From positions 1 to 64,000 of IMG/VR virus record IMGVR_UViG_3300047548_000772: a stretch of DNA of 64,000 bases. One strand, written 5' to 3'. A program made the translations under genes and the position numbers. The notes below the pieces were generated by a model. That model had not been told where the DNA came from. It was given only the letters and a program-made list of their open reading frames with translations, and did no database searches. This document shows positions 21,242 through 47,282 of this stretch, one piece after another (position 1 is the stretch's first letter; every line of letters begins with the position of its first letter). The DNA is from a virus.

Positions 21242-22459
21242 ATGAAGAAGAGTCTAGTCGCTCTATCAATCGCAGCAATGTCAACTGCTGCTCTCGCTCA
21301 AAGCAACGTTACCATTTATGGTGTTGCAGACGTGTCAGCACAAGGCACCAACGTAACACAAGGTGTTGGCGCACCAGGCGGTACAGAAGGTGGCGCATTT
21401 AATCTAAAGTCAAACGACTCATTGCTTGGCTTCAAGGGCACCGAAGCTCTTGGCAACGGTAACAAGGCATTGTTCCAATTGGAATCGTATGTTAACGTTA
21501 CTGGCAACAACCAAGGTCCATCATATGGCAACGGCAACAACCTATTTGGTGGTATGCGTGATTCATTTGTTGGCTTCGGCAGCAAGTACGGTACAATCCA
21601 AGGTGGTTACTTCTCAACTCCATACCGTGCTAGCCTACTAACATTTGATGTATTCCCAGGCGACCGTAGTGACTCGGTACTAATCAACACTATGGGCAAG
21701 CAACGCATCGGTTATCGTGGTCTTACTGATCAAGCCAGCACTGGCTACGTCCAAGCCGACAACGCAGTTCGTGCAACTGGTCTACAATATGCTATGCCAA
21801 CTCTTTATGGCATCAATGGTTCGATCGCTTACACCGGTTCAAATAACAACGGCACAAGCAACCAAACCAATAACACAGTTGGTCTGAACACACAAACAAG
21901 CCTAGCAGGTCAAAACGCACTATCAATGAACTTGGGCTGGACTGGCTACGGTGTTAACATTGCTGGTGCTTTTCAACAAACCAAGCTAAACTCAACTGTC
22001 AATGCTGACAACGGCTTCACATCAACAACCCCATTTAGCGGTTACACCAGCTACATGGTCGGTGCACAGTACACAGGCCTACCGGGTCTAAAGGCAGCAG
22101 TTGCCTACAACCGCAACAGCCTTGGTACTAACAACTCATCAGACCTAGGCGCAAGCAAGGGCAGCAACAACCAAATCTACGTTGGTGCAAGCTATCGCTT
22201 TGGTAACAACGAGCCACGTGCTTCTTACATCAGCACCAGCGACACATCAGGCTTTAACGTTGGCCAAGATGGTGGTACACAGTGGAACCTAGGTTGGGCT
22301 TACTATCTAAGCAAGCGCACCAACGTTTACGGCATGGTCACCCAGTACAAGAACAACGCTAACGGCGTATGGGCACCATATCAAACTGGTACTAACCTAA
22401 TGCCAACTGGTGGTCAAATGCTAACCACATACGGTGTTGGTCTACGTACAAACTTCTAA
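21242..22459 (+). CDS. Gram-negative general porin (Betaproteobacteria-type)
   Basis: signal peptide, AQSNVTIYGVADV, GFKGTEALG, YYLSKRTNVY, C-terminal VGLRTNF. Confidence 0.93.
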   Translation: MKKSLVALSIAAMSTAALAQSNVTIYGVADVSAQGTNVTQGVGAPGGTEGGAFNLKSNDSLLGFKGTEALGNGNKALFQLESYVNVTGNNQGPSYGNGNNLFGGMRDSFVGFGSKYGTIQGGYFSTPYRASLLTFDVFPGDRSDSVLINTMGKQRIGYRGLTDQASTGYVQADNAVRATGLQYAMPTLYGINGSIAYTGSNNNGTSNQTNNTVGLNTQTSLAGQNALSMNLGWTGYGVNIAGAFQQTKLNSTVNADNGFTSTTPFSGYTSYMVGAQYTGLPGLKAAVAYNRNSLGTNNSSDLGASKGSNNQIYVGASYRFGNNEPRASYISTSDTSGFNVGQDGGTQWNLGWAYYLSKRTNVYGMVTQYKNNANGVWAPYQTGTNLMPTGGQMLTTYGVGLRTNF

Positions 22460-26581: not shown

Positions 26582-27101
26582 ACTAAGTTCTAGTCCGGAA
26601 CGGCATAGTTTCCAACGCCAAAGTAGGTTGGATCAACGCGAAGCCGTGGCTAAACAAGCACCCGAGGATCTTGATGTATGGGACCAAATTCGCATGGATG
26701 AGGAACTGCGAGAGCAAGATCCCGAATGGCAAAAGGACAACTTAGAGTACGATCTACGGTCAACTAATTGGATTTTACAAAAAGCACGTTTGAGCAGAAC
26801 TTACTCGCAAAACTTGTACGCTGCACTATGTAACAATGATTTTCAAAAGATCGACGTTATACCTATACTCAAGGATCAACGTTGGTCATGTTCTTGGCGT
26901 TATGCCGGCGGCATTGTTGCACACATGCGTCAAGAAGGCGATTACATTGATTGGTACTGTTCGGGTATCAACGGATCGTACGAAGACGAACCAGACACAC
27001 GCACACGAGGCGAAGTTGCCGAAGGTTATGTAACTGATGAGATACGCCAAGACCTCAAGGCACTAGGATGGATTGTCATAGATTATGACGCTAATAAATA
27101 G
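26556..27101 (+). CDS. hypothetical phage protein
   Basis: WSCSWRYAGGIVA...YIDWYCSG. Confidence 0.75.
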   Translation: MSQNENSNKLSSSPERHSFQRQSRLDQREAVAKQAPEDLDVWDQIRMDEELREQDPEWQKDNLEYDLRSTNWILQKARLSRTYSQNLYAALCNNDFQKIDVIPILKDQRWSCSWRYAGGIVAHMRQEGDYIDWYCSGINGSYEDEPDTRTRGEVAEGYVTDEIRQDLKALGWIVIDYDANK

Positions 27102-28173
27102 ATCTATGATATCAAGCACCAAAGTTATTATTCCTCAAGTTGATTTTAACATTACCAATCAGTGCAATTTAAACTGCAACGGCTGTTATTCTCTTTCGAA
27201 TTATGATTTAACCGGGCACCAATTGTGGAATGACTACAAGGATTCTTGCCAAGAATTAAGTACAAAAGTACACATCAACGAATGGACATTATACGGCGGA
27301 GAACCCACTCTTAACCCAACCTACTTGGATTGGTTAAAAGGTTTGTCGGAACTATGGCCCAACAGCAATGGATATCTACTGACCAATGGATTCACGCTCA
27401 ATGATCGAAGTACTAAAAGCAAAAAGTTGTACGAGTTTTTAGCAGAGCACGCCGATAAAGTAAGTGTTAGAATAAGTTTGCACGATGTTCGTAAACTCAA
27501 TGATATGATTGCAAATGTCAAATCTTGGCTAAAGGATATTGTTGACACTAGCAGATATCCAGATATCGAAAAGGTTTTTAACAGCAAACAAAACTGGGCA
27601 GAGTCTTATGCTCGCATCAAAGATGCTAGTTGGCCCGATTGTAAATCGTGGGACGATTTTAAGAATTTACCGCAATGGATTCAAGATGAATGTGATTCGC
27701 AATTTAACTTCTCGGATGTTAAATTCAAAGATAATTTGCAAGGATACAAGTTTATCGACGTAAACGGAGTAACTGTGCAGCTCGACAAGATCCATTGGCA
27801 TGTTAGCGGACCTTTGCTGCCGCAAGCCGATTTGAAAACGTTTAAACTACATTCTAGTGACCCAGTGAAAGCCCACGATGTTTGTAACATTAAAAACTGT
27901 ACAGAATTTTATCAAGGTAAGCTGCACAAGTGTAATGCTGCTTCTCATTTTGGCGAGTTTAACCGTCAATACTATATAGAACTAACCGAAGAAGAAGAAC
28001 GAATCCTAAATGCTTACACACCGTGTGATGCCAGTTCTAGCATTGAAGAGATCCGGGATTTCTTAGAAATGATCAAACACCCGATACCTCAATGCAGATT
28101 TTGCAACGATTCCCCTATCCCGATCGAAACACAAGCTACTGTAAAACCGATTAAGTTCCAAAAGCGTATTTGA
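27085..28173 (+). CDS. radical SAM protein
   Basis: CNLNCNGC, GGEPTL, C-terminal Cys cluster. Confidence 0.9.
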   Translation: MTLINRSMISSTKVIIPQVDFNITNQCNLNCNGCYSLSNYDLTGHQLWNDYKDSCQELSTKVHINEWTLYGGEPTLNPTYLDWLKGLSELWPNSNGYLLTNGFTLNDRSTKSKKLYEFLAEHADKVSVRISLHDVRKLNDMIANVKSWLKDIVDTSRYPDIEKVFNSKQNWAESYARIKDASWPDCKSWDDFKNLPQWIQDECDSQFNFSDVKFKDNLQGYKFIDVNGVTVQLDKIHWHVSGPLLPQADLKTFKLHSSDPVKAHDVCNIKNCTEFYQGKLHKCNAASHFGEFNRQYYIELTEEEERILNAYTPCDASSSIEEIRDFLEMIKHPIPQCRFCNDSPIPIETQATVKPIKFQKRI

Positions 28174-28203
28174 CAATATTTCGCCGATTTTAGTAGCTCT
28201 CGG

Positions 28204-28314
28204 TTGACAAGGTATAAATAAAATCGTACACTACATGTTGTAGTATAAGTAACAAGGTGTTAACGCAAGATGGATTCCGTCGAGGTTGACAACAAATAAA
28301 TAATTTCGTACAAT
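28204..28314 (+). promoter_or_regulatory. tandem promoters of the RNA region
   Basis: TTGACA(28204)-N17-TACACT with TATAAATA in its spacer; TTGACA(28286)-N17-TACAAT. Confidence 0.8.
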
Positions 28315-28351
28315 GCTTACATTGTATAATTTTAAGGAAGCAACAAAACAA

Positions 28352-28498
28352 ATGCAACTCTGTTCGTTACATACATCGTTTAGAAACATAGCCAAACAGG
28401 CTGGCACAATGCCGACCTATTGGTCAGTGTCTGGAAACGATCAAAGTAATGATCGCGGTCTAGAGATTAGCCTGGGTTCCACGGAGGAACAGAAGTAG
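28352..28498 (+). CDS. putative attenuator leader peptide (48 aa, all 20 amino acids)
   Basis: AAGGAAG RBS; stop 26 nt before terminator; contains antiterminator strand. Confidence 0.7.
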   Translation: MQLCSLHTSFRNIAKQAGTMPTYWSVSGNDQSNDRGLEISLGSTEEQK

Positions 28499-28523
28499 AG
28501 TAATACTTCTAACTTATCCAAGG

Positions 28524-28560
28524 AACCCTAGAATCGAAAGAGACTAGGGTTTTTTGTTTT
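28524..28560 (+). terminator. intrinsic terminator / attenuator
   Basis: AACCCTAG/CTAGGGTT stem followed by U-rich tract. Confidence 0.85.
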
Positions 28561-28833
28561 GTACTGTAGTAAAGTGTAATAGGCAACGCGAGCCTGCTGG
28601 CACTATAAACATCGGCTATAATGAGGGCGGCCTACCGGATGAGAAGGTTACGGCGGTAACGTAACTGGTAAAAAGGTAGCGTAGTAAAGCAGATTGTAGT
28701 CGGTTCAACTCCGGCAGCATCTAGGACGCTAGATGCATAGTCAGCAGTCTGTTTTACTACACACATTCTGGAACCAAATGGGAGTGAAAAGTCCGTGGCG
28801 GAGTGTGTTATAAATCAAGCAGTTACAACGTGG

Positions 28834-28895
28834 TTGACCAGAAATCACCATTTTGCTATAATGTAGTCATAGTAAGTAATAAACGTTCATTAACA
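28834..28895 (+). promoter_or_regulatory. sigma70 promoter plus boxA-like element
   Basis: TTGACC-N17-TATAAT; CGTTCATTAACA at 28884. Confidence 0.75.
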
Positions 28896-29636
28896 ATTTG
28901 GAGAGTGCTAGTTAGTTGTTTACAACCTAGCTGGCACCATAGTAAAGACTATTATAGATGGAGGGCGACCCGTCACTGGATAATCGACAGGAAGTCTATA
29001 GTGGTCTTCACTATGGTAACCTGAAACTTGATACAGAGTAAGTGGGGGAGTAAAGACCCCCGGGCTGATCTGAGTCAAGCGGATAAGAGTTTAAGGTATG
29101 TTGGGCGTCTTGCTCCGATATACTACTCAGGAAATCTGAAGTCATTGTATAGTGTCATGGTTGCATATACCTTGGCTGAACGGTGGAACTACTCGAATGT
29201 GTGCGCACACAAGCTGAGACTATCACTAAGTAGGTTAGGACAAGGTGGTCTAGGTTCGATTCCTAGTACAATGGCTATACTCAACATGAACGCAGACGTC
29301 TAATAGACTATCTGTAATTAGTGCAAACTAGTTTAGAGTTGGTCTAGCCAAAACCAACTCACCATATTAAAGCACATTGGTCCGGAACTTGGTGGTTGGT
29401 TGAAGTCCAACGACGAGGCATCATTGGCAGCATGGTAAGATCCTAGTGTGTTCTAATATGGTTTACGAGTAGACCCAGGACGGGGTGTGGTGATTACCAT
29501 CATTCTAGATTCCTTGAGGTTCGAGTCCTCTGCTACTCTCTGGGGCAAACAGCAGGGCCTGAGATGGCCAGCTCAACGGTTGTTAGTGACGATGGGTGGT
29601 ATCGGAACTATCAAGAACAATAAAGCCTAACCGGGC

Positions 29637-29702
29637 TTGACAACAAATAGCATTATTGCTATACTGTTGAAACTGTAGTAAAGCAATAACTGATCTTTAA
29701 CA
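29637..29702 (+). promoter_or_regulatory. sigma70 promoter plus boxA-like element
   Basis: TTGACA-N17-TATACT; TGATCTTTAACA at 29691. Confidence 0.75.
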
Positions 29703-29986
29703 ATTTAGTAGATATACACATGCACACAAATGCGTAGGCCACGCAGATATGGCGGGTACATAGCAAAGTTCCCTGTAACAGGGCTTTGTTGGCAGGTTCG
29801 AGTCCTGTGAGTGTGCAGTTGTATATCTATTAAACCATATTGAAGCATACTTTTGCCTAAATAGGGTGCCAACTTCACCCGAAGCACAAGGAAGTCTAGG
29901 AGTAGCTACCTAGCAGGATTGTGCGAAGTCACAGACGACATTGGCAATCGTTTGGGAGTGTGCTACAATATGGTTTAAAAGGATTT

Positions 29987-30845
29987 GGGGGCATAGCCTC
30001 GTTAGAATAACTGTCGCGAGACAGCCAAAGCAGAGTCGTCCTACACGCCTGCGCCAGCAATGGTTCATCTATGCAAGCCTGCTCACTATGGCGACATAGC
30101 GTTCACTGATAAGACCGGTGGATGTAACAGTGAAGCAAGTGTATGGGGAAGAACGTTTGCTCAAGCGCCAGCAATGGTAACGCAAGTAGACGAAAAGTAA
30201 CAGGTGGTGCTGACTTCCATACAAACCAACTTGTCAACTGGTATGAGAAAGGGTAGTGTTCGTGTCCGAGGTGTCGCAGCCAAGGGCTAGAACGCAATGT
30301 TAGTGGTTAGTGGCAACTGCTGTGAAGCGTTGACATCGATCGCAAAACATGACTGAGTAGACCGCGAGTCAAAAGGTACTTGGTGTGTTGTATTGGGTAT
30401 TCCAAAAGAGTATTCAGCAACTGAGGCAGCACATCATCGTAGGTTGCAACTAGCTCATTGGTAGAGCATCTCAATGTTAATGAGACGGCAGTTGGTTCAA
30501 ATCCAACGTTGTTTACAAAAATGCAAAGTCTGCCTCTCGTGGTAACGAAAATGGCCTAATACTTGACACGTAAGTGAATCAAGTTACCTAAATGCCGCAA
30601 GCAAATAGGTATCGGTTAGAATAATTTCGTAAGGGTTTAGCGACCTTGAACTGCTCGCAAGGCAGACGGAATTTGAATAGTCGAGTAGTTATCACGGTAA
30701 CGAGAAAAGCAACTCGTAAAAATGCGGCCATGGTATTGGACTTATCTACCGCAAGGGGGTAAGTGGATGAGAAAGGAAAGTTTCCCGCAAGGAGATCATA
30801 ATCTTTCGAGGCAATACTAGGATTCCGTATAATCTCAGCGGCTTC
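29987..30845 (+). ncRNA. probable GOLLD RNA
   Basis: ~860 nt, many GNRA hairpins, segments matching recalled GOLLD consensus (CAAACCAAC, AAAACATG..GAGTAG, GCAACTGAG..AGCACATC, GAATAGTCGAGTA, TAATCTCAGCG); beside tRNAs; ends approximate. Confidence 0.72.
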
Positions 30846-37101: not shown

Positions 37102-39213
37102 ATGATTGATATACTATTTTGTGCAATACCTTACAGTAATTTAGACCACATCTATAGCGCACCGGCAATCCTTAAAGGGGTTGTAACTGAAAACGGATAT
37201 ACTGCTAAAACTGTGGAATTTGGGCATGAGCTTTTTAAACTATGCAACAATGACGTTGACTTGTTTACCAGCGTCCAGCAGTACTTTATTTCGAACAAAA
37301 ACGAAGATAAAGTAGTCCTAGATATCGTTGAAAACTTTTACAACAACACTATATCTTATTTTAAAAATAACCCATCTCTCTATATTGGCATCAGCGTATT
37401 TTCAGTATGGACTCACAAGACCACGTGGGAGTTGCTAACACGTATCAAACAAGAAAATATTTCTAGCAAAATAATTATCGGTGGTACCGGTGCAAACGTT
37501 GGCCCTTATAGAATGTTTAACGATTTGTTTCAATTGCGTGGACTAGAAAAAACATTAAAGTATGGTAAGTTGTTAGAAAAAAGAAACTTAGCCGACTATG
37601 TAGTTCTTGGCGACGGCGAAGATGCAATTCTTAACATACTACAAAACAACAATGGCTTTGATACCAACGTTATCGACACTCAACATCGTAGTGAGTTTTT
37701 TAGGTCACCGATTCCAGATTATAGCGACTACGACTTTAGCTTTTATCGCTTTGCCGATGGAGAAATACGTTGGCCAATTACCGGCAGCAAGGGCTGTGTA
37801 AGAGATTGCGATTTTTGCGACATTGCTAAACAATTTGGAAAGTATCGTTATCGCGGTGGAAAAGACATAGCCAATGAAATGATTGAGATCGCTAACACCA
37901 AAGGTGCGAGAAAATTTAACTTTTCAGACAGTTTGGTCAATGGCGGGCTTAAACCGTTTAAAGAATTTTTAGAAATTGTTGGTGACTACAACGATTCAAA
38001 TCCATCTAAGGCTATCACTTGGTCTGGACAATATATATGTAGACCCGACGTTCCTGATGAAATGTATGATCTAATAAAACGCAGCGGTGGTGAAGGCCTA
38101 ACCATCGGCGCTGAAAGCGGAAGCAACGCTGTACTTGCAGCAATGAACAAAAAGACCACAGTAGAGGCACTATATGCCGAGCTTGAAAAATTTAGTAAAC
38201 GCAAGATCACTTGTGTCTTACTGCTCATGGTTGGACACTGGTCGGAAACATGGGACGACTTTGTTGACCATTGCCGAATGATTGTAAACATTGCGCCTTA
38301 TGTGCGTTCAGGTTGTGTGTCAGGTGTTCGTGCAGGATTGCCAATGATCATGCACGATCAAACACCGGCGTGGGAAAACAAAGAACAAAATCAAATTATT
38401 ATCAGTGATTTCGATCCGAATAATATTTGGTACTGCGGTATCAATCCTTCTAACACGTACAAAGAACGTATTTTTAGAAAATTATTGGTAGTAGATCTTT
38501 GCAAGAAGATGCGCATACCTTTGTTGGGCGAAACTGAAGATTACCTACAATGCTCAGCAGTTATGGGATCAAACAAAGAAAAAATTGTCGAGTTTTATCA
38601 ACAGTTTGGCATAGACTTTGATGAACCAACAGAAGCAGAAAAACATTTAGCTAACTTTGATCAATTTGTCAATGAACTAACTCATAAGAATTCGCTGGAA
38701 TTAGACTTAACTGTCGTTGCCAGCGAGTGCAATGGCATGCCTAATTTACAAATTCTCAAGGATGGCAATTTGATTTATAACAAGTTGCTGAACAATGGAA
38801 CTCATATTATTAAATTACAGTTACCACAATGCGATACTAATAACCTTAGTTTCAAAATGAGCAACAAAGATGCAGCAGCCGATACCAAGGTAATCAACGG
38901 CAACGTAGTAGAAGATAAATTTATAGAAATAAAATCTTTAAAAATTGACAACTACGACTTATGCGCAGACCCAGATTTTTTCCGCGGTCAGATTGAATAC
39001 GTTGACGATCTTGCTGGTAAAGTTGATGTCAAATTTGGATTTTGGAATAACGGCACAATGTCCTTAAGCTATCCTAAAGAGTTTCAGCTTTGGTACCAGC
39101 ATCAAAGTAGTAAATATGCATCTCCAGAATCCGAGTCGGCGTATCGAGAATTCTTAAACACCGCATCAACTTCAACCAGAGAAAAGTTAGTAAAATTAGT
39201 AACATCAAAATAA
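37102..39213 (+). CDS. B12-binding-type (class B-like) radical SAM protein
   Basis: KGCVRDCDFC, FSDSLVNG, IGAESGS. Confidence 0.88.
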   Translation: MIDILFCAIPYSNLDHIYSAPAILKGVVTENGYTAKTVEFGHELFKLCNNDVDLFTSVQQYFISNKNEDKVVLDIVENFYNNTISYFKNNPSLYIGISVFSVWTHKTTWELLTRIKQENISSKIIIGGTGANVGPYRMFNDLFQLRGLEKTLKYGKLLEKRNLADYVVLGDGEDAILNILQNNNGFDTNVIDTQHRSEFFRSPIPDYSDYDFSFYRFADGEIRWPITGSKGCVRDCDFCDIAKQFGKYRYRGGKDIANEMIEIANTKGARKFNFSDSLVNGGLKPFKEFLEIVGDYNDSNPSKAITWSGQYICRPDVPDEMYDLIKRSGGEGLTIGAESGSNAVLAAMNKKTTVEALYAELEKFSKRKITCVLLLMVGHWSETWDDFVDHCRMIVNIAPYVRSGCVSGVRAGLPMIMHDQTPAWENKEQNQIIISDFDPNNIWYCGINPSNTYKERIFRKLLVVDLCKKMRIPLLGETEDYLQCSAVMGSNKEKIVEFYQQFGIDFDEPTEAEKHLANFDQFVNELTHKNSLELDLTVVASECNGMPNLQILKDGNLIYNKLLNNGTHIIKLQLPQCDTNNLSFKMSNKDAAADTKVINGNVVEDKFIEIKSLKIDNYDLCADPDFFRGQIEYVDDLAGKVDVKFGFWNNGTMSLSYPKEFQLWYQHQSSKYASPESESAYREFLNTASTSTREKLVKLVTSK

Positions 39214-46020: not shown

Positions 46021-46160
46021 GATAAATACCCAATTATCGGAGATTAACATGATGTATGGGGTATTTTTTCTAGTGCTAGCGGGCATAATATTGTACGCAC
46101 AAATAGCAGCGGAACGTGAGTTCCAAGAGCGTAACAAAAAGAAGTAAAGAATTGTTGTAA

Positions 46161-46446
46161 TTCCTTCGTAGTGAAGGCGTCGTGGACGGCGGTTCGATTC
46201 CGCCCTGCTCCACCAAAAGCATGATCGACCATACACTAGTAATGGTGACATATAACAGATTGTGCTTCTGATGGGGCAGACCTGGTTTCGACAGGGCGAG
46301 ATAGCGAAAGAGGCAACACGAGAGTTGACTGACGTAATCAGCAAACAAAAAGTAAACGCAAACGATGAAGTTTACGCACTAGCTGCCTAAGATTAGGTAA
46401 GCAGGAGTTTTCTGCCGCTTTTCTTGACAACAGAATAAAGCGGCAA
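46161..46446 (+). ncRNA. ssrA: circularly permuted (two-piece) tmRNA
   Basis: acceptor piece ending CTGCTCC-A-CCA (46215), 57-nt spacer, GGGGCAG 5' end (46273), tag ANDEVYALAA* at 46358-46390; outer ends approximate. Confidence 0.93.
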
Positions 46447-46448
46447 TT

Positions 46449-47282
46449 TTATCCGTAGACTCGATCTAAAATTTCTTGTGTTATTCCGTATTTTAATAAC
46501 ATAGATTTGGTAACATCTAAGCATCGGGGATCTTCGAGTTTACGACTGTGCTTCCAAACAATACGGTCTTCCCATTGATCAAATTCTTTAACCTGTTGAA
46601 GTATCCCTTCGTAGGTCTGGTGTGTCCATCCACCAGCAAACATCAATGGTGTTTCTTCCGGTCCTAAAAACTCAACCGACTGCATAGGGTCTTTAAGGGC
46701 GAAAAGATAATAAGAATAAATTTCACATAACCCTGGATATATTTTCCAAGTAGAACAATCACCAAATTTTGTATTCAAGTGTGTCCACAAACGGCTAAGA
46801 AGAGCAACGTTCCACAACCAAGGTCTAATGTTTGAAATAGCAGGGTAATGATCAATAGGGCCGTCGACTATCTCGTCGAGATCATAGCCCATCTTAGATA
46901 TTTTTTGATCTAACAACACATAGGTATGTCGATATTTGTTACCTTTTTTAAACGCAGATATATCGCAAGGACGCAGTAAAAAATCCTTGCAATCCCACAC
47001 AAGTATATCGTCGGCACCCGAGTTAACACTATAATGCAAGGTATTAACCTGTTGTTCAGTAGGACCGCACCCATAAGCATGTAGTGTAGGTTTAATTTCA
47101 ATTTTCCACGACGAGTCAAACACCTCATCGGTAATTTTCTTGAACGCCGATTCGTCGTCGTTTTTACCTAAGCATACAATTAAATCTTTGTTACCTTGCC
47201 AATTTTTTGCCAAGCAATAACAAAACATATGAAACTGTTTAATATCATCTTTAAAAGTGGTTACTAACATTCGATAGTTCAT
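46449..47282 (-). CDS. hypothetical protein, possibly glycosyltransferase-like
   Basis: ILVWDCKDFLLRP. Confidence 0.6.
   Translation of the reverse strand: MNYRMLVTTFKDDIKQFHMFCYCLAKNWQGNKDLIVCLGKNDDESAFKKITDEVFDSSWKIEIKPTLHAYGCGPTEQQVNTLHYSVNSGADDILVWDCKDFLLRPCDISAFKKGNKYRHTYVLLDQKISKMGYDLDEIVDGPIDHYPAISNIRPWLWNVALLSRLWTHLNTKFGDCSTWKIYPGLCEIYSYYLFALKDPMQSVEFLGPEETPLMFAGGWTHQTYEGILQQVKEFDQWEDRIVWKHSRKLEDPRCLDVTKSMLLKYGITQEILDRVYG

Follow-up and report, generated by a model that had tools for sequence, protein, structure and literature searches.

Why would a phage place, upstream of its RNA genes, a 48-codon open reading frame (ORF) in which every amino acid of the genetic code occurs? The question is raised by a locus in IMG/VR record IMGVR_UViG_3300047548_000772, a 192-kb fragment of an uncultured phage, estimated to be 55% complete, which carries 32 tRNA genes, a transfer-messenger RNA (tmRNA) gene and a GOLLD RNA. 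The window analysed here comprises positions 1 to 64,000 of that record. Our results suggest, with somewhat better than even confidence, that the locus is a ribosome-mediated transcription attenuator with a leader ORF in which essentially all amino acids and almost all tRNA decoding classes are sampled. The more specific proposal is that of a '20-valent' attenuator, that is, a selected pangram of the genetic code in which shortage or cleavage of any tRNA would delay the ribosome and open the phage tRNA array; we consider it about as likely as not. Comparison across the family of related loci shows that the frame is open and pangrammatic, that two pairings of the RNA are mutually exclusive and covary, that the stop codon falls between the two strands of the antiterminator (regions 2 and 3) and that the unit precedes tRNA arrays.

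The promoter, ribosome-binding site, 48-codon ORF, terminator, alternative pairing and competing hairpins described by the initial annotation of this DNA were each found where it had placed them, and its account of the composition (20 amino acids, 39 distinct codons, all six Ser codons and four different Leu codons) was reproduced by a recount. The parts of the element, all on the + strand, are as follows.

28286-28314, + strand: leader promoter of the sigma-70 type (TTGACA at 28286-91, a 17-nt spacer, TACAAT at 28309-14), with 11/12 matches in a promoter scan.
28335-28341, + strand: Shine-Dalgarno-like AAGGAAG, 10 nt 5' of the ATG, read from the sequence.
28352-28498, + strand: leader ORF of 48 sense codons plus stop (28496-98), with 20 amino acids and 39 distinct codons.
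28391-28424, + strand: conserved irregular hairpin inside the ORF (codons 14-25), encoding A-K-Q-A-G-x-M-P-T-Y-W, from folding and covariation.
28472-28480, + strand: region 2, the antiterminator 5' strand (CTGGGTTCC, core GGGTTCC), which pairs with 28522-28531.
28486-28490, + strand: region 2', the proximal partner GGAAC, within a purine-rich, GGAGG-like stretch, in a small hairpin GTTCC/GGAAC.
28491-28510, + strand: hairpin AGAAGTA/TACTTCT around the stop codon, from folding.
28520-28559, + strand: intrinsic terminator made of region 3, a 12-nt loop, region 4 and a U tract, from folding and family covariation.
28560-28815, + strand: conserved structured RNA of unassigned class, directly 3' of the terminator and common to 13 other loci.

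The terminator arms are AAGGAACCCTAG (region 3, 28520-31) and CTAGGGTTTTTT (region 4, 28544-55), and GGGTTCC at 28474-80 is the exact complement of GGAACCC at 28522-28 in the 5' arm. The terminator was overlooked by a terminator scan because its loop has 12 nt. Within the ORF, C, F, H, P, V, W and Y each occur once, and the first Glu is codon 38. An additional in-frame ATG at 28313 would give a 61-codon frame, but it lies inside the -10 box; the homologues place the start at 28352. TTGACA and TACAAT boxes stand at the equivalent place in homologues (alignment A3). Two more TTGACA boxes (28170 and 28204) lie shortly 5' of the leader promoter, within 28170-28232, and the one at 28204 is followed, after a 17-nt spacer, by TACACT; the leader may thus have tandem promoters.

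Homologous loci were collected in two ways. A phmmer search with the leader frame found small-ORF homologues of 50-89% identity, whose DNA shares conserved blocks. A degenerate DNA pattern of the core then yielded 83 loci (24 viral and 59 metagenome contigs), corresponding to 71 distinct loci, 61 of which were analysed at full length. The second set was obtained with a pattern taken from the RNA switch alone (GGGGTCC ... GGACCCCAGG ... CCTGGGGTTTT), independent of the reading frame; it gave 117 further stretches, none of them matching the core pattern exactly, with 74 distinct loci and 73 peptides. Together there are about 145 distinct homologous loci. The contigs of the first set are all apparently of freshwater origin, and the family is one of freshwater phage contigs. 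Matches of the phmmer search to the giant proteins P0020, P0021 and P0027 were rejected as homologues, since they reflect a chance resemblance to repeated FN3-like units (T-V-P-x-x-W ... G-Y-E-V-S-x-G).

The element was absent from isolate phages by blastn (window positions 27000-30500 and one family member against 50,697 phage records), and an exact 24-mer from the window had 0 matches in viral contigs. The 48-aa product matched no family in Pfam-A or PHROGs at E up to 0.1-1. A cmscan of 28150-28900 against Rfam 15, at E up to 10, returned only two noise-level matches, and an Rfam scan over 28 kb found nothing in the leader region, neither a T-box nor any other model.

The initial annotation had proposed beforehand that in related phages the diversity of the leader and the pairing should be kept while the peptide drifts, and this is what the family exhibits. 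A frame of 42-53 codons (about 46) is open in all 71 loci of the first set and all 74 of the second. Its ATG is invariant, and every frame ends between the two antiterminator strands; the other five frames contain 1.5-4 stops each. All 20 amino acids are present in 56/61 first-set and 64/73 second-set sequences. When both sets are combined, 113 of the 127 unique peptides hold all 20 and 12 more hold 19. The diversity is not that of random ORFs, given that only 2.2% of 46-residue windows taken from long ORFs in the same loci, and 1/285 sequences from the other five frames, contain the complete set. Shuffling of alignment columns left 22.3±2.9 all-20 peptides against 49 observed, and when conserved columns were kept and the rest redrawn from the family residue pool, the fraction holding all 20 was 0.10. 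Among 18 clusters defined at <40% non-core identity, most members hold all 20 in 15.

The rare residues are kept in number while they move along the peptide. Trp occurs exactly once in 73/73 second-set peptides; Cys occurs at least once in 73/73, with exactly one copy in 57, and His at least once in 73/73. In the first set, Cys is found in 12 alignment columns and His in seven. Between the window and its nearest relative, L007, the change C4G is matched by S32C, and the core residues that are, rarely, lost are present elsewhere in the same peptide, as for R (L086), D (L012), N (L044) and P (L037).

At the level of codons the excess over expectation is modest, and it was computed without regard to phylogeny. 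Frames have on average 36.6 distinct codons, against 32.6 (window-genome usage) and 34.8 (uniform synonymous usage) expected given the peptides, and cover a mean of 28.7/32 decoding groups defined by a third-position pyrimidine or purine, against 26.5-27.0 expected. Both Ser codon families are used in 128/131 frames, both Leu families in 111 and both Arg families in 105, and AUA appears in 83%. The claim that codon diversity in the window's own leader exceeds chance was borne out, with 39 distinct codons against 34.4 expected (p about 0.01). In a background of 71,492 stop-free 48-codon stretches of the window's genome, at least 39 distinct codons are reached by 0.038%, the full set of 20 amino acids by 1.3% and the two together by 0.003%.

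In most clades AAGGA or AGGAA stands 5' of the ATG. One clade has no Shine-Dalgarno sequence (L016, L018, L020, L024, L026, L030, L033-L035, L060, L072, L089 and L095), and in alignment A3 10 nt separate the end of its TACAAT box from the ATG, which implies a nearly leaderless mRNA, as far as the alignment can tell. In this clade genes for tRNA-Met and tRNA-Leu are located about 215-780 nt 5' of the core motif.

The second carrier of the argument is the RNA. All members have a terminator with a 12-13 bp GC-rich stem and a U tract, 19-31 nt after the stop codon, and the stem covaries in the family (e.g. CG48/UA10/UG3 at one pair). The alternative pairing announced by the initial annotation is likewise conserved. 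Region 2 pairs with region 3, the 5' arm of the terminator, in >95% of cells (columns 265-271 with 344-350 of alignment A3), with compensatory changes at two pairs (GC45/AU9/GU3 and CG53/UA3), and GGGTTCC/GGAACCC of the window is one of the covarying variants. Cells changed on both sides number 13, against 3.4±1.5 in shuffles, and 0/500 shuffles reach the observed value, although such shuffle-based counts overstate independence because the sequences are phylogenetically related. The distance from region 2 to region 3 is 39-52 nt; within it the stop codon follows region 2 by 8-30 nt (mode 15), which leaves 19-31 nt to region 3.

As long as region 4 has not yet been made, the 2:3 helix has an equilibrium probability of 0.99 (56 members) or 1.0 (the window), and the 2:2' hairpin one near 0. 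Once the full terminator is present, the 2:3 helix averages 0.67 in the family, and in the window the terminator wins (P=0.99). Pairing of 2 with 2' is kept through sequence changes (GUCC/GGAC, GGUC/GACC, GGUCC/GGAUC), and the hairpin around the stop codon is formed in homologues by other sequences (GCGU/ACGC, GUGUA/UACAC, UAGUG/CACUA). RNAalifold on whole-element alignments recovered the terminator alone, and a three-way junction of the window (CAGGCU/AGCCUG) is not conserved in relatives. Runs of codons for one amino acid, by which attenuators are classically recognised, are not present; the rare residues occur once each.

A further structure lies in the middle of the frame. The central peptide motif of the window's clade, AKQAG.MPTYWS, coincides with the irregular hairpin at 28391-28424. 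Over 102 unique versions this hairpin has a mean minimum free energy of -13.1 kcal/mol and a mean z of -2.75. Double-sided changes occur in 17 cells, against 9.4±2.4 in shuffles, a value reached by 2/500. In the diverse set the inner helices change sequence and stay paired, and an invariant TGG is within the closing stem. Synonymous sites of the core vary only at predicted junction nucleotides; the codons for Lys, Gln, Gly, Thr and Tyr located in stems are fixed. A possible role of the hairpin is that of a pause site, at which RNA polymerase would be synchronised with the ribosome.

From this arrangement we infer translation of the frame, a response to stalling and a direction of the switch, as follows. 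The dedicated promoter would give rise to a short mRNA, on whose frame of about 46 codons a ribosome would move while RNA polymerase advances; the mid-frame hairpin may pause the polymerase and start both in step. With such pausing, textbook elongation rates would put the ribosome on region 2 at about the time when region 3 emerges. A ribosome arriving in time at the last codons would occupy region 2 (GGGKTCC) or the loop of about 43 nt between regions 2 and 3. Region 3, clear of the ribosome, would then pair with region 4 to form the terminator, and transcription would stop. If any charged tRNA is lacking and the ribosome is delayed at an earlier codon, region 2 would capture region 3 on its emergence. 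The 2:3 helix would block the terminator, and the polymerase would proceed into the downstream genes, namely a small protein and then the tRNA array in most relatives, and a structured RNA and then the RNA-gene region in the window. The net effect would be a negative-feedback governor, which supplies more phage tRNA when any part of the tRNA pool limits translation. Possible triggers are host tRNA turnover and cleavage by anticodon nucleases. We favour this canonical sign because the 2:3 helix forms by default without a ribosome, because stop positions 8-30 nt after region 2 are tolerated, and because negative feedback on tRNA supply makes biological sense.

In the second set, tRNA genes follow within 3 kb in 68/68 loci whose downstream sequence extends for 1.5 kb or more; 855 of these tRNAs are on the same strand and 0 on the opposite one, with a median gap of 442 nt and a mean of 12.6 tRNAs; the first set has the same pattern. 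The position at the head of the tRNA region, as originally proposed, was seen in every informative locus of the family; in the window itself the tRNAs begin only 1.9 kb further on, past additional promoters, and what directly follows the terminator is the conserved structured RNA, not a tRNA.

A small gene, preceded by a strong Shine-Dalgarno sequence, starts 15-19 nt after the U tract in at least 71/126 distinct contexts. It encodes a protein of 52-60 aa with the motif LT.EQ..KLI.DKFERA and precedes the tRNA array (e.g. L008:4224-4382 and L010:4248-4415). No Pfam or PHROGs family was found for it, and no homologue is encoded in the window's 192-kb record. The space in front of the gene is too short for a separate promoter, so that its transcription has to pass through the terminator. 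One possibility is that the protein is co-regulated, another that it acts as a feedback regulator.

In a subset of loci the small gene is replaced by the structured RNA, which has about 250 nt (28560-28815 in the window), conserved blocks (AGGnAACGnG..CCUGC..GCAC..AAACAU, AAUGAGGGCGG, CCUACCGGAUGA and GGUAGCGUAGUAAAGCA) and conserved helices. It is found in L011, L015, L025, L102, L105, L111, L118, L122, L129, L139, L153, L170 and L174, and has no Rfam match. When L007:343-751 is compared with window positions 28313-28620, the leader peptides are 89% identical and the sequences diverge completely just 3' of the terminator, where L007 continues into the small-protein gene and the window into the structured RNA. 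Because of this divergence right after the terminator, the attenuator looks like a module boundary for recombination, to judge from these two loci.

Several points weigh against the attenuator reading. The sign of the switch is not derivable from sequence, and stalling at a single codon is weak in comparison with the runs of codons in the trp and his leaders. In roughly two thirds of members, Glu and/or Val appear nowhere but in the final ~10 codons, so that a ribosome stalled at these codons would cover region 2. The full-length RNA of the window strongly favours the terminator at equilibrium, and the switch must therefore be kinetic. In the window no tRNA is closer than 1.9 kb, and transcription from strong promoter-like sites at 28834, 29637, 29941 and 41390 can circumvent the attenuator. 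The family also conserves the central peptide motif (AKQAG.MPTYWS ... NDR), and a role at the level of the peptide is conceivable, although what the diverse set keeps is the RNA hairpin. The clade without a Shine-Dalgarno sequence would need initiation of the leaderless type. To these is added the shared ancestry of the sequences, which affects the shuffle-based counts.

Among the alternatives, the one that survives best, and which we still consider unlikely, retains the same architecture with the opposite sign. A ribosome at the stop codon would cover region 2' and leave region 2 free, the 2:3 helix would form and transcription would read through; upstream delay would allow the 2:2' hairpin and the terminator, so that expression of the downstream genes would require fast decoding of all 20 amino acids. 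The modal spacing of 15 nt from region 2 to the stop codon matches roughly half a ribosome footprint on the 5' side, so that a terminating ribosome would cover 2' and just expose region 2. The preservation of the 2:2' hairpin through covarying changes fits the same scheme, and the GGAGG-like stretch, some 6 nt 5' of the final sense codon, might retain the ribosome through anti-Shine-Dalgarno pairing. Other spacings do not agree with it: in several clades, at 8 nt, region 2 is inside the ribosome, and in others, at 27-30 nt, neither element is covered. The ribosome-free ensemble before region 4 is made of the 2:3 helix (0.99), with 2:2' near 0, so the 2:2' hairpin is no effective default block. 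Moreover, the 2:3 helix would need to close round a ribosome-filled loop, and positive feedback, with fewer tRNAs when they are short, makes little biological sense.

It is improbable, though next in rank, that the terminated leader of about 230 nt is itself the product, a stable small RNA acting in trans or binding a protein (e.g. the downstream small protein), with translation secondary. The stretch 28321-28565 has a fold z-score of -5.4 (-3.9 to -5.3 in sliding windows), when the flanking genes are at about 0, and such an RNA would consist of a 5' hairpin, the conserved central hairpin and the 3' terminator. Attenuator-derived small RNAs are known, rnTrpL being an example (PMC6614838). A small RNA of this kind could coexist with attenuation. 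On its own it leaves unexplained the universally open frame, the conserved ATG and the pangram property, and no target is known.

The conservation of parts of the peptide has to be weighed in two further readings. In the first, which we regard as very improbable, the leader encodes a functional micropeptide, the terminator is the end of a one-gene unit, and the diversity simply results from a conserved motif together with common residues. The motifs AKQAG.MPTYWS and NDR(T)P are indeed conserved, and the unit has its own promoter and terminator. Outside the central motif, however, the three codon positions are equally variable (1.26/1.33/1.23 bits of entropy for the N-terminal part, 1.18/1.27/1.13 for the tail), and no codon periodicity is seen. 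The region 2 motif GGGKTCC is read in frames 0/1/2 in 37/21/3 sequences; because of this, tail peptides differ by frameshift relative to the fixed RNA motifs, with the frame still open. Only 8 alignment columns are at least 80% conserved in the combined set. As far as the alignments go, conservation of the leader outside the core is not that of a protein, and the RNA-level motif is kept. A micropeptide also fits poorly with single-copy residues that shift position yet are almost never lost, with the covarying antiterminator, with a product that has no Pfam or PHROGs match and with a downstream small gene that lacks room for its own promoter.

In the second, which ranks just below and is about as improbable, the leader is an arrest peptide (W ... 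NDR-T-P) acting in the exit tunnel like TnaC or SecM, and a stall near the stop codon, dependent on a ligand or condition, would decide the fate of the terminator. The single invariant Trp and NDR(T)P stand at roughly fixed distances from the stop (about 22 and 9-11 residues), and the stop codon is constrained in its position with respect to the RNA switch. The conserved W and NDR, however, overlie conserved RNA elements, with no peptide-level signature elsewhere in the frame. The peptide around Trp varies across the diverse set, while the hairpin encoded there is kept with compensatory changes; the synonymous sites of the core codons for Lys, Gln, Gly, Thr and Tyr do not vary where they lie in stems, and those at junctions do. 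The all-20 composition is left unexplained.

Lastly, we give almost no credence to the idea that the frame is open by chance within a structured non-coding RNA, whose balanced base composition would yield diverse codons: stretches of the genome with at least 39 distinct codons do fall mostly in RNA genes, and the codon usage of the leader is non-genic (score -0.04, against 0.34±0.19 for genes), but this explanation is already contradicted by frames that are intact in all ~145 loci, by insertions and deletions in the N-terminal and central parts that preserve the frame, by the stop-rich other frames and by the presence of all 20 amino acids in 89% of peptides. It had been our first working reading, initially favoured because of the diverse stretches in RNA genes, the fold z-score and the non-genic codon usage, and was overturned by the universally open, pangrammatic frame in homologues. 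The most codon-diverse stop-free frames of the genome lay in RNA genes (antisense of the tmRNA, tRNA-Ile/Gln and the non-coding RNA region; 30015, 35791 and 46276-46318), which is a warning for screens based on codon diversity.

Some observations concern the surroundings of the leader. The GOLLD RNA is at 30380-30841 (Rfam RF02032, 209 bits, full length), with a tRNA-Asn (30444-30516) embedded in it. The tmRNA gene (46102-46481) fits the betaproteobacterial and the permuted models and encodes the tag peptide ANDEVYALAA; together with a porin gene (21242-22459), it hints at a Gram-negative, possibly betaproteobacterial host. Genes for radical-SAM proteins recur nearby: one (27085-28173) adjoins the leader upstream, and a B12-binding radical-SAM protein is encoded within the tRNA region (37102-39213). 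In L010:1-3800 four radical-SAM genes stand in a row beside the leader, and synteny with the leader is not general. When the upstream radical-SAM protein was used as a query for related loci, no relative was obtained; on the contigs of its homologues synteny was not conserved, and no leaders were reached in this way.

Phage tRNA arrays are common and, to our knowledge, the control of their expression is essentially uncharacterised. If the reading as a 20-valent attenuator is true, large phages would possess a universal, self-correcting sensor of translational capacity, and a built-in answer to host anticodon nucleases and other tRNA-depleting defences. A sensor of the whole tRNA pool would be a new regulatory logic on an old mechanism, tying phage tRNA genes to the anti-phage defences that target tRNA. 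It would also be a rare case of selection on the composition of a reading frame and not on the sequence of its product, which bears on the annotation of small ORFs. With about 270 nt, sigma-70-type signals and an intrinsic terminator, the element should be directly testable in E. coli and might serve as a reporter of translational stress.

The closest known systems are the attenuators of amino-acid operons. Known leader-peptide attenuators each sense one or few amino acids. Like trpL, hisL, thrL and the multivalent ilvL of ilvGMEDA, the phage leader combines a short ORF, an intrinsic terminator and an upstream segment that competes for the 5' arm of the terminator; the stop is placed so that a finishing ribosome would block the antiterminator, and the in-leader hairpin could synchronise polymerase and ribosome. 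It differs from them in having no codon runs, with 20 amino acids and about 29/32 decoding groups sampled by roughly one codon each, in an ORF of 42-53 codons instead of 14-32. Its targets are tRNA genes, small RNAs and a small protein instead of biosynthetic enzymes, and it has no strong 1:2-type structure that would enforce termination when the leader is not translated.

Regulation of the translation apparatus by tRNA charging is shared with pheM of pheST, other attenuators of aminoacyl-tRNA synthetase genes and the T-box riboswitches. In contrast to the phage leader, pheM senses one amino acid, and a T-box makes direct contact with a single uncharged tRNA, by its specifier codon and T-box sequence, with no translation. 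In pyrBI-type attenuators, as in the mechanism proposed here, the outcome depends on how closely the leading ribosome follows RNA polymerase at the terminator; there, a close ribosome prevents the terminator hairpin directly, the signal is UTP-dependent pausing of the polymerase, and there is neither an antiterminator helix nor codon sampling.

The uORF toiL of topAI in E. coli, PA5471.1, ermCL and bmrB are general sensors of translation stress, as is proposed for the phage leader: stalls at different positions of a short ORF lead to one output, the induction of what lies downstream. These leaders sense ribosome-targeting drugs, several of them act through Rho or translational unmasking, and they are short and incomplete in composition; in the phage element, the terminator is intrinsic and the composition of the ORF itself appears to be selected. 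A full-text literature search returned no description of a leader ORF selected for all amino acids, nor of attenuation control of phage tRNA arrays. Consistent with what the initial annotation had stated, no earlier description of such an element was found in Rfam, Pfam, PHROGs or the literature. Taken together, the class of mechanism is known, and the sensing logic, the genes regulated and the evidence for selection on composition are new.

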